This document shows positions 5,777-39,310 of a DNA stretch of 64,000 nucleotides, piece by piece. Under the pieces are notes generated by a model, which was not told the DNA's origin, did not search any database, and saw nothing but the letters and a program-made list of their open reading frames with translations. Both the position numbers and the translations under genes were made by a program. Origin of the DNA: Escherichia phage vB_Ec-G1; sequence record PQ433349.1; one strand, given 5' to 3'. Each line of letters opens with the position of its first letter. Within the stretch, counting starts at the first letter, position 1.

Positions 5777-6519
5777 TAATCCTCCTCAAGAGTTGAATAA
5801 AATTGAAGACCACCGTCCATATCGAAATAAGCAAATGTTAAGTTATTATTGAACACAGATCCAGTATCCATATAAACACGATTCGCATTGATAATAGGTG
5901 TTTTTACATAAGAGTGTCCATGAAACACATAATCCACACCCATCACAACAGGAAGTTTCATTCCCTCTTTAGCACAGTCTACCATATCTCTGTCCCACAT
6001 AAGTGCTTCAGCAAAACGGTTTTCCTGTGTTTTTGTCATCTTCGAAATGTATTCTGGAATATCTGTTACAGGGAGATATTCCAAAGAAGATGGATACCCA
6101 CCATGAATAAACGCAAGTTTCATGCCTCTGTAGTTAACAATGAGAACAACAGGTAAATCTTCTGTCATCATTGCTAAGGCTGTAGCTCCTTCTTCACCAC
6201 ATTCTTCAAAGACCGTATATCCTCCATTTTGATACCAACACTCGTAGTAGCTACGATCTCCTTCCAGCATACCTTTAATCATCATGTCTTCATGATTGCC
6301 ACGAATAGCGTAGCGATTGTGTTTACGAGTAAATTCTAAAACACAACGAAAGTTTTGCTTTCCACGGTCAGTAAGATCTCCTAGAGATACAACCACATCT
6401 GTATCTCGGATACCTAACTTTGCCTTTCCTTTTTCATACAAATTATAACAACCGTGTAGATCTCCAATTATAAAAAGATCTTGATCGCTTTTAACAGTAA
6501 TTTCTCTGTGTATGATCAC
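5776..6519 (-). CDS. Ser/Thr protein phosphatase (calcineurin-like metallophosphoesterase, PP-lambda type)
   Basis: GDLHG, GDLTDRG, GNHE metallophosphatase motifs in order. Confidence 0.85.
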   Translation of the reverse strand: MIIHREITVKSDQDLFIIGDLHGCYNLYEKGKAKLGIRDTDVVVSLGDLTDRGKQNFRCVLEFTRKHNRYAIRGNHEDMMIKGMLEGDRSYYECWYQNGGYTVFEECGEEGATALAMMTEDLPVVLIVNYRGMKLAFIHGGYPSSLEYLPVTDIPEYISKMTKTQENRFAEALMWDRDMVDCAKEGMKLPVVMGVDYVFHGHSYVKTPIINANRVYMDTGSVFNNNLTFAYFDMDGGLQFYSTLEED

Positions 6520-37586: not shown

Positions 37587-37615
37587 TTGACAACAAACAT
37601 TATTTTATGTTAGAT
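37587..37615 (+). promoter_or_regulatory. candidate sigma70-type promoter upstream of tRNA-Ser
   Basis: TTGACA, 17-nt spacer, TTAGAT. Confidence 0.4.
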
Positions 37616-37624
37616 TATAAATAT

Positions 37625-37715
37625 GGAAGGGCAAATCGACGTGGCGACGAAAACGGTCTTGAAAACCGCCGAGCTTGAAAGAGCCTTGGGAGTTCGACTC
37701 TCCCTCCTTCCGCCA
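37625..37715 (+). tRNA. tRNA-Ser (anticodon TGA), type II
   Basis: Acceptor GGAAGGG/TCCTTCC, anticodon loop CTTGAAA, long variable arm, CCA. Confidence 0.7.
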
Positions 37716-37813: not shown

Positions 37814-37943
37814 AGTTCTTTTTAATATAGCTTACTTTAATAGAGTAAATTTTCGGCAGATGGCCCCCATCATCTTACCGATACCTCATAGTTAGTGGTG
37901 CGAACACTGGCTATTTTAAAAAGAATTTAAATATTAGTATTTA

Positions 37944-38031
37944 GGTGAGTTAATTCCGTAGGGGTAGCGGGGCAGACTGTAAATCTGTTATCATTGCGAT
38001 TCGGGTGGTTCGACTCCATCACTCACCACCA
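37944..38031 (+). tRNA. tRNA-Tyr (anticodon GTA), type II
   Basis: Acceptor GGTGAGT/ACTCACC, anticodon arm GCAGA-CTGTAAA-TCTGT as in bacterial tRNA-Tyr, discriminator A, CCA. Confidence 0.7.
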
Positions 38032-38037
38032 AATTAA

Positions 38038-38123
38038 GATGAGTTGGCTGAATGGTTTAAGCAGCGGACTGTTAATCCGTGTTCGAAAGAACAATATAGG
38101 TTCGAATCCTATACTCATCGCCA
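38038..38123 (+). tRNA. atypical tRNA with anticodon GTT (Asn) on a Tyr-like type II scaffold
   Basis: Acceptor GATGAGT/ACTCATC, anticodon loop CTGTTAA, extra GTTCGAAAGAAC hairpin before T-arm, discriminator G, CCA. Confidence 0.5.
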
Positions 38124-38130
38124 GAATTAT

Positions 38131-38207
38131 GGACTTGTAGAGTTAAGGTAAACCCCCAGTCGCCAATAGGCTTCTGGAATTGCAGGTATCGAATCCTGCC
38201 GAGTCCC
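38131..38207 (+). ncRNA. tRNA-like element without canonical anticodon arm (possible pseudo-tRNA)
   Basis: Acceptor-like GGACTTG/CGAGTCC and T-arm-like GCAGG-TATCGAAT-CCTGC, but no 5-7-5 anticodon arm with U33 could be folded. Confidence 0.3.
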
Positions 38208-38288: not shown

Positions 38289-38561
38289 ACACAACATTAA
38301 GAGCACTGTGATTGATCGTCGTATCCTGTGCACAAGGTCTGCTCGAAAGACAGTGTTCTTAGTATTGTGTTGATCACAAAAAGAGTCACCCGAAACTTGA
38401 CCGGAGTAGGGTTGGATGGGGCAAAATGAGAAGCGGCTCTCCCATCGACAGCAACGAAGAATAATATTTGACTTTGGTTTTGTATTATTTTAAGTTAGCT
38501 TACCGAACGTAGGGCTAGTCACCCAACGGGATACTCGTCACTGTCCCAATCAATAAAAGTC

Positions 38562-38591
38562 TTGACAACAAATAGTAAAATGTAGTATAGT
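38562..38591 (+). promoter_or_regulatory. sigma70-type promoter upstream of tRNA-Gly
   Basis: TTGACA, 18-nt spacer, TATAGT; tRNA starts about 12 nt downstream. Confidence 0.6.
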
Positions 38592-39090: not shown

Positions 39091-39169
39091 AGCGGGATAG
39101 AGGAGTCTGGTCGTCCTCGCCAGTTTCATATGCTGGAGATCATCGGTTCAAATCCGATTCCCGCCTCCA
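39091..39169 (+). tRNA. tRNA-Met (anticodon CAT), second copy, A1xC72 mismatch
   Basis: Anticodon arm CCAGT-TTCATAT-GCTGG, T-arm ATCGG-TTCAAAT-CCGAT, CCA; first acceptor pair unpaired. Confidence 0.6.
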
Positions 39170-39284: not shown

Positions 39285-39310
39285 AGCCTCCTTATTGGAG
39301 GCTTTTTGCT
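39285..39310 (+). terminator. rho-independent terminator after tRNA island
   Basis: AGCCTCC-ttatt-GGAGGCT followed by TTTTT. Confidence 0.7.

Follow-up and report, generated by a model that had tools for sequence, protein, structure and literature searches.

The gene at positions 38038-38123 of the window, by which we mean the whole stretch of 64,000 nucleotides analysed here, raises the question of how a tRNA bearing the anticodon of asparagine comes to carry a long variable arm, which amino acid it receives, and what the arm might do. Textbooks and recent identity reviews confine long arms to the tRNAs for Ser, Leu, Tyr (in bacteria) and Sec. The gene itself is already known: well over a hundred GenBank records list it as a tRNA-Asn, and these include >100 records of related phages. 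A full-text literature search found no description of a long-arm tRNA-Asn architecture, which is likewise absent from the identity review, the reviews of non-canonical tRNAs, the allo-tRNA paper, the tRNA-array survey, the phage-tRNA evasion papers and the PARIS paper; the T5 sequencing papers of the 1980s may mention it.

The gene, its fold and its extra arm

ARAGORN calls a tRNA-Asn (gtt) of 86 nt over exactly 38038-38123, and the Rfam tRNA model (RF00005, gathering threshold 29 bits) matches the gene from end to end with 62.3 bits and an E value of 2e-12, placing a 12-nt insertion in the variable region. The minimum-free-energy structure computed with ViennaRNA is a five-arm cloverleaf. The three results bear out the sequence-only reading of the gene as a type II tRNA that combines the Asn anticodon GTT with a discriminator G. 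The parts of the gene are as follows.

38038-38123, + strand: tRNA-Asn(GUU) gene with five arms and an encoded CCA, 86 nt (ARAGORN, Rfam, minimum-free-energy fold)
38038-38044, + strand: 5' strand of the acceptor stem, GATGAGT, pairing with ACTCATC at 38113-38119 and including G1-C72 and A2-U71
38047-38062, + strand: D-arm GCTG-AATGGTTT-AAGC with a 3-bp stem (sequence, Rfam alignment, helix pair counts)
38064-38080, + strand: anticodon stem-loop GCGGA-CTGTTAA-TCCGT, with the anticodon GTT at 38071-38073
38081-38092, + strand: extra (variable) arm GTTC-GAAA-GAAC, a 4-bp stem with a GAAA tetraloop (fold, covariation, shuffle excess)
38093-38095, + strand: unpaired AAT between extra arm and T-stem, a Tyr-type spacing
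38096-38112, + strand: T-arm ATAGG-TTCGAAT-CCTAT (Rfam alignment, helix pair counts)
38120, + strand: discriminator G73 (sequence; G in 114 of 114 relatives)
38121-38123, + strand: encoded CCA end (sequence; CCA encoded in 70 of 114 relatives)

The linker after the acceptor stem is U8 G9, position 26 is A (38063), and a G13-A22 mismatch beside the 3-bp stem gives the D-arm a class II-like character. With a variable region of 15 nt that folds into a stem-loop (class II tRNAs have at least 10 nt there) and a 3-bp D-stem, the gene has the structure of a class II tRNA, but its anticodon GTT specifies Asn and thus falls outside the class II isotypes, which are Ser, Leu and Tyr in bacteria, and Sec. 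Conversely, it has both G34-U35-U36 and G73 of bacterial tRNA-Asn but lacks the usual class I body with a variable loop of 4-5 nt. Comparison with asnT of E. coli K-12 (76 nt, class I) makes the same point: the two share G73 and the anticodon stem-loop at 17 of 17 nucleotides, whereas the variable loop of asnT has 5 nt, its D-stem 4 bp and its first acceptor pair is U1-A72, against the 15-nt variable arm, 3-bp D-stem and G1-C72 of the window gene. Readings of 38038-38123 as a pseudogene, a chance hairpin or an intron-containing gene were considered and rejected.

Base-pair changes in the extra arm were counted after nine phage orthologs had been aligned with MAFFT without gaps, and a shuffle control was used. 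An N-padded alignment was excluded as circular, the hairpins having been picked sequence by sequence; a 26-member MAFFT alignment was excluded because the extra arm is misregistered wherever the 5'-side base is unpaired; and the alignment from a covariance-model search at E <= 1e-6 was excluded because the search drew in all tRNAs of the loci. In the gapless alignment all 4 of the 4 pairs of the extra arm change on both sides while 100% of the cells remain paired, and changes on both sides are found in 7 of 7 acceptor-stem pairs. The overall covariation is 0.73, compared with 0.17 after shuffling and at most 0.14 with slid partners. Among the first 54 distinct sequences, 24 variable regions contain a hairpin of at least 4 bp, compared with 9.8 +/- 2.4 (maximum 19) in 1000 mononucleotide shuffles of the same 54 regions. 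The double-sided changes indicate that the extra arm is under selection.

The stems that occupy this place in the orthologs are GTTC/GAAC, GAAC/GTTC, GTCA/TGAC, ATCC/GGAT, GAGC/GCTC, GTCG/CGAC and GAGG/CCTC, and also GTC/GAC. The earlier suggestion that the hairpin is a near-duplicate of the T-loop motif does not hold against this diversity; because the stem sequence varies freely among orthologs, the TTCGAA common to the extra arm and the T-loop is incidental. Duplication of the T-arm as the source of the extra arm was rejected, the arm stem being covarying and its sequence not being kept.

The copies in phages phAPEC8 and Mt1B1_P17 differ from that of the window at 3 positions only, all 3 unpaired. 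Position 26 (38063) and the first unpaired base after the arm (38093) are both A in the window, and phAPEC8 and Mt1B1_P17 have G at both. The joint change of 38063 and 38093, seen as two haplotypes within Phapecoctavirus, may reflect a tertiary contact.

Distribution and kinship of long-arm tRNA-Asn

The window comes from a phAPEC8-like coliphage of the genus Phapecoctavirus, and its 2-kb tRNA region shares 98% identity with Escherichia phages KKP 3954, AV126, anhysbys and others. A sensitive BLAST search of GenBank phages with the 86 nt matched 673 records, and many of the alignments cross the extra arm. The same layout is shared by tRNA-Asn genes, annotated with lengths of 83-86 nt, of T4-like phages (Serratia X20, Klebsiella Metamorpho), of T5-like phages (Providencia PSTCR5, Escherichia SuperGirl, BUCT632) and of Justusliebigvirus JLBYU50, and an 83-nt long-arm version is present in phage T5 (T5_ev212), in SP15 and in about 280 T5-like records. 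The T5 gene is a cross-family ortholog, 73% identical to the window gene: a tRNA-Asn(GUU) of 83 nt with a GTC-GAAA-GAC arm followed by AAC, with G73 and with CCA. Unlike the window gene, which has A2-U71 and a host-identical anticodon stem-loop, it has G1-C72, G2-C71 and G3-C70, and U28-A42 next to the site at which the nuclease AriB cuts.

IMG/VR was scanned with a sequence pattern and the matches were passed through ARAGORN and a parser of our own, which yielded 114 distinct long-arm tRNA-Asn(GUU) sequences from viral contigs and bacterial tRNA arrays. Because the pattern demanded GGACTGTTAATCCG in the anticodon arm, the counts are minimum values, and the family-wide conservation of the anticodon arm is not independent evidence. 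The 7/5 acceptor/T helix, the T-loop, an anticodon loop with U33 and A37, and G73 are kept in all 114. The first acceptor pair is U1-A72 in 81 and G1-C72 in 32 of the 114, and C2-G71 is found in 54; U1-A72 and C2-G71 are typical acceptor features of tRNA-Asn that these members have kept. The extra stem is 3-4 bp long in 89/114, is capped by a tetraloop in 90/114 (GNRA in 69, including GAAA in 51) and is followed by 3-4 unpaired bases in 84/114.

The strict pattern matched 117 stretches in IMG/VR and 30 in 185,579 bacterial and archaeal species represented by one genome each, and most of the real matches among the 30 cellular stretches lie in dense tRNA arrays. A stretch of 8 kb holds 23-36 tRNAs in Micromonospora and Verrucosispora, and the corresponding counts are 26 for a Methyloprofundus MAG and 21 for a Flavobacteriales MAG. 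A scan without a constraint on arm length suggests that long-armed genes make up about 12% of viral tRNA-Asn with this anticodon arm. Ordinary tRNA-Asn of 74-76 nt is also present in some of the bacterial arrays, and the long-arm gene is the sole tRNA-Asn in the window, in the sequenced 8-kb tRNA region of T5 and in near-complete Micromonospora arrays. We take long-arm tRNA-Asn to be a lineage of some age, conserved and peculiar to phages and mobile tRNA arrays. Its presence, with conserved and covarying arm, in model phages (T5, relatives of T4), in genera of therapeutic phages (Phapecoctavirus) and in bacterial mobile arrays shows that mobile genomes cross the boundary between classes I and II repeatedly.

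An 87-nt tRNA-Asn of Azoarcus sp. L1K30 (114-200) owes its extra length to a tandem duplication of CCGTAGGTC and not to a hairpin; it probably reflects damage to the gene or faulty assembly and was left out of the family.

The sequence-only reading had also drawn attention to the neighbouring tRNA-Tyr:

37944-38031, + strand: tRNA-Tyr(GUA) adjacent to the tRNA-Asn gene (Rfam 39 bits; missed by ARAGORN)

The likeness noted there is literally true, the acceptor strands GGTGAGT and GATGAGT agreeing at 6 of 7 positions and the anticodon loops being CTGTAAA and CTGTTAA. Arm geometry was compared with that of the class II tRNAs from the same loci.

tRNA-Ser (n = 70): extra stem 4-7 bp; mostly 1 unpaired base 3' of it; discriminator G in 56/70
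tRNA-Leu (n = 53): extra stem 3-5 bp; mostly 1 unpaired base 3' of it; discriminator A
tRNA-Tyr (n = 39): extra stem 3 bp (29/39); 3-4 unpaired bases 3' of it (31/39); discriminator A (38/39)
Long-arm tRNA-Asn (n = 51): extra stem 3-4 bp; 3-4 unpaired bases 3' of it (35/51); discriminator G in 51/51

The window arm, with 4 bp and 3 unpaired nt, has the geometry of tRNA-Tyr (a stem of about 3 bp and 3-4 unpaired bases), whereas neither it nor the long-arm Asn arms as a group have the size and orientation of a tRNA-Ser arm. In bacterial tRNA-Tyr, as in the window gene, a stem of 3-4 bp bears a loop of 3-4 nt and is followed by 3-4 unpaired bases; G34 and U35 are common to both, and a tRNA-Tyr is often the adjacent gene. 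The tRNA-Tyr differs in having A73 and A36, hence the anticodon GUA, where the window gene has G73 and GUU, and the sequence likeness is that of the general tRNA background except, in this genus, for the acceptor stem. When the anticodon arm is left aside, the window gene is 0.74 identical to the phage's own tRNA-Ser(GCU) and 0.63 to the adjacent tRNA-Tyr, and in the sister genus the adjacent tRNA-Tyr is only 0.55 identical to the tRNA-Asn gene. Across loci, the best class II partner outside the anticodon arm is Tyr in 8, Ser in 8 and Leu in 5, with values of 0.55-0.74 that correspond to tRNA background.

Long-arm tRNA-Asn genes from other phage families are the nearest kin of the window gene (0.72-0.73), and its origin by recent duplication of the adjacent tRNA-Tyr was rejected. 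The proposal that a tRNA-Tyr duplicate was converted to read Asn codons survives in part. Tyr(GUA) and Asn(GUU) are one anticodon base apart, and it is chiefly positions 36 and 73 that distinguish the two identities. An ancient Tyr-to-Asn switch (A36U and A73G) is therefore a plausible origin that agrees with the Tyr-type geometry of the arm, but the gene is not a recent copy of its neighbour.

Such an origin would also allow the arm to be a neutral relic of a class II ancestor, most simply a tRNA-Tyr changed by A36U and A73G, that is kept because a class II core needs an arm for folding; the arm would then have no dedicated function, and decoding of Asn codons would be normal. We regard this explanation as rather unlikely, though it accounts for the Tyr-type geometry, the class II-like D-arms, the acceptor stem shared with the adjacent tRNA-Tyr and the neighbourhood, Tyr(gta) being the commonest neighbour of long-arm tRNA-Asn and adjoining it in the window, in phAPEC8, in JLBYU50 and in two bacterial arrays. 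Against it, the sequence outside the anticodon arm picks out no donor, and the great family-wide diversity of acceptor stems and D-arms suggests several origins or long selection. The strong enrichment of GNRA loops (69 of 114) also speaks against it. Moreover, other isotypes in the same arrays have gained similar arms while the tRNA-Leu of T5 has lost its own, and arms are for this reason better described as readily gained and lost than as frozen.

Amino acid identity and possible roles of the arm

Bacterial Asn identity resides in the anticodon and G73, can be transplanted into tRNA-Lys, and is protected by G73 from LeuRS and TyrRS; U1-A72 is a determinant for the amidotransferase GatCAB (PMC9976931). 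On this basis the window gene is probably a functional phage tRNA-Asn. It would read AAC and AAU on a class II-like scaffold, and the host AsnRS would charge it with Asn through its GUU anticodon and G73. Charging with Asn is favoured because the gene has the full Asn set, the 17-nt match to asnT, A2-U71 and an arm that is not of the Ser type, because its relatives carry C2-G71 and U1-A72, because it is the sole tRNA-Asn of its array, because Asn codons are frequent, and because its T5 ortholog takes part in a rescue described below. Asn (AAY) codons make up 5.4% of the codons in the 48 long ORFs of the window, a frequency at which systematic insertion of Ser would be ruinous.

Class II synthetases approach their tRNAs from the variable-arm side, and given this approach the extra arm could hinder AsnRS. 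Allo-tRNAs (PMC5389517) and nematode nev-tRNAs, which SerRS charges, and tRNA-Ser also combine a long arm with G73, and the allo- and nev-tRNAs have anticodons other than those of Ser, Leu and Tyr. The window gene differs from all of these in its standard 7/5 helices, its shorter arm and its Tyr-type spacing, and from the allo- and nev-tRNAs in that its anticodon and discriminator agree on Asn, so that no mismatch between identity and anticodon need be assumed. The arm offers a natural test case for discrimination among long-arm tRNAs by AsnRS, SerRS and TyrRS, and possibly a new scaffold for orthogonal tRNAs.

What the arm adds to a tRNA-Asn may be sought in the defence systems that phages encounter. 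In E. coli the PARIS nuclease AriB depletes host tRNA-Lys, tRNA-Thr and tRNA-Asn, and co-expression of the T5 tRNAs for Lys, Thr and Asn rescues growth almost fully and relieves the PARIS defence; the rescue used the three T5 tRNAs jointly, and the authors raised the possibility of decoy action or competition with host tRNAs (PMC12409363). Host tRNA-Asn is cleaved by AriB at 40|41, and a model places the second monomer of the enzyme on U16-U17 of the D-loop; the resistance of the T5 tRNAs was ascribed to substitutions near the cut site, and the variable arm is never mentioned (PMC12409363). The host tRNA-Asn being a proven PARIS target and the T5 tRNA-Asn a member of the rescue set, the arm bears on how phage tRNAs escape immunity.

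The extra arm leaves the tRNA at position 44, beside positions 40/41 of the anticodon stem and beside the D-arm. In the anticodon stem, T5 tRNA-Asn differs from the host tRNA only at the 28-42 pair, and the window tRNA-Asn does not differ at all. Since its positions 27-43 are those of the host, the basis of any resistance must be distal, in the extra arm or the D-arm. The phage tRNAs known to evade anticodon nucleases (PMC10264068; T5 tRNA-Lys) are likewise isoacceptors of nuclease-targeted host tRNAs, host tRNA-Asn(GUU) being an AriB target, but they evade by point mutations in the anticodon loop or stem, whereas the anticodon arm of the window gene has no substitutions and none are found at or near the cleavage site.

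We tentatively suggest, as a doubtful though possible role, that the arm shields phage tRNA-Asn from tRNA-cutting defence nucleases. On this proposal the extra arm would make the tRNA a poor substrate for host enzymes such as AriB. Two observations speak against such shielding: the tRNA-Asn of SP15 gave no rescue from PrrC170, and phage Bas34, which encodes a tRNA-Asn, still needed T5 tRNA-Asn supplied from a plasmid (PMC12409363). The wider proposal that extra arms on class I tRNAs are a general structural counter-defence of phages and mobile arrays, with Asn as the main case, is credible but seems to us unlikely. A GNRA-capped arm, projecting next to the D-arm and along the anticodon stem on its 3' strand, would then block tRNases sterically while leaving the anticodon arm untouched. 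If this were true, the arm would represent a second tRNA-based route of immune evasion beside point mutations in the anticodon loop, and tRNA-Asn would be a fourth class II isotype in the bacterial world.

The RNA could instead serve mainly outside translation, either by diverting or competitively inhibiting a defence nuclease or in the manner of a stable or regulatory RNA. The competition with host tRNAs raised in the PARIS study (PMC12409363) and the structured elements other than tRNAs in the same cluster are compatible with such a role, but the retention of the translation features (7/5 helix, T-loop, U33, A37 and G73) throughout the 114 relatives, together with CCA in 70 of them, makes it very improbable.

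The sequence-only reading had allowed for altered decoding, to which nothing in the data points, the T5 ortholog acting as a useful tRNA-Asn in vivo (PMC12409363). On one such reading, SerRS (or TyrRS) would recognize the long arm and G73 and thereby direct Ser (or Tyr) to Asn codons, as deliberate mistranslation or recoding. SerRS ignores the anticodon, and Ser identity depends on the size and orientation of the arm, on G73 and on a conserved G1-C72 and G2-C71, C2-G71 being an anti-SerRS element (PMC9976931). The window gene thus has SerRS features as well, namely its long arm, G73 and G1-C72, and these count against the assignment to Asn; G1-C72, G2-C71 and G73 occur together in the T5-like and T4-like copies, the arm of the phage's own tRNA-Ser(GCU) is only 4 bp long, and the allo-tRNAs (PMC5389517) are a precedent for long arms with non-Ser anticodons. 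However, the window copy has A2-U71 in place of G2-C71, about half of the relatives (54/114) carry the anti-SerRS pair, the arm geometry is of the Tyr and not the Ser type, and TyrRS is blocked by G73. The frequency of AAY codons, the position of the gene as the sole Asn tRNA in arrays that span all amino acids, and the finding that the T5 ortholog improved growth and did not harm it (PMC12409363) argue in the same direction, and mischarging is accordingly the least credible of the roles considered, with hardly any likelihood.

Class switches in other isotypes and the surrounding tRNA cluster

Short arms, often GNRA-capped, were also seen on class I isotypes in 9 loci of phages and mobile arrays, namely Cys(gca), Trp(cca), Thr(tgt), His(gtg), Gly(tcc), Pro(tgg), Glu(ttc) and Lys(ttt). 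Long-armed Lys(UUU) and Thr(UGU), the other AriB targets, occur in the same arrays as long-arm tRNA-Asn. In 14 loci, tRNA-Ile(UAU) is 91-99 nt long and has a putative extra arm with a recurring CCAGATTAGG-like motif; conservation of sequence in this arm suggests a specific recognition partner. The reverse switch, from class II to class I, is seen in both tRNA-Leu genes of T5_ev212 (2120-2196 and 6289-6365), which are 77 nt long and have a short variable loop, and 16 of the 35 tRNA-Leu called by ARAGORN in viral loci are 74-78 nt long.

The window gene belongs to a sub-cluster in the order Ser(UGA)-like, Ser(GCU), Tyr, Asn, tRNA-like element and Thr(UGU), upstream of which lies a promoter-like site.

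37587-37616, + strand: sigma-70-like promoter, TTGACA, 18 nt, TAGATT, with an upstream TG (consensus scan, 10 of 12 matches)

This site probably drives the Ser-Ser-Tyr-Asn-Thr tRNA sub-cluster. A second promoter-like site lies at 38562-38591 and a terminator-like hairpin at 39285-39303.

Several members of the cluster are unusual. The first, at 37625-37715 (+), is a tRNA-Ser(UGA)-like gene of 91 nt that ARAGORN missed and whose best Rfam match, tRNA-Sec at 37.4 bits, is below the threshold of 47; its odd 5' half, GGAAGGGCAAATCGACGTGGCGACGAAAA, closely resembles GGAAGAGCAAATCGAATTGGTGACGAAAA of T5 tRNA-Ser, which suggests a conserved non-standard D-arm in phage tRNA-Ser. The tRNA-Tyr at 37944-38031 has an irregular D-arm, with three and not two bases between acceptor and D-stem and a stem rich in U-G pairs, and its equivalent in Mt1B1_P17 is annotated 'tRNA-Pseudo-GTA'. 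It may still function, because it has A73, CCA and a normal anticodon arm.

The gap between the Asn and Thr genes holds a tRNA-like element at 38131-38206 (+). Its acceptor-like stem has 7 bp and its T-arm a loop of 8 nt (UAUCGAAU); the 'anticodon' arm is branched, and a proper D-arm is missing. The fold has a z-score of -3.1, and no tRNA finder calls the element. Two spacers of the cluster are strongly structured, that at 38289-38370 (+) forming an imperfect hairpin of about 20 bp (z -3.6) and that at 37815-37926 (+) a branched structure (z -3.4), and both are reminiscent of species 1 and 2, the small stable RNAs of the T4 tRNA region. Farther downstream, at 39091-39169 (+), a tRNA-Met(cat) of 79 nt has a mismatched first acceptor pair, and its Mt1B1_P17 equivalent is annotated 'tRNA-Pseudo-CAT'.
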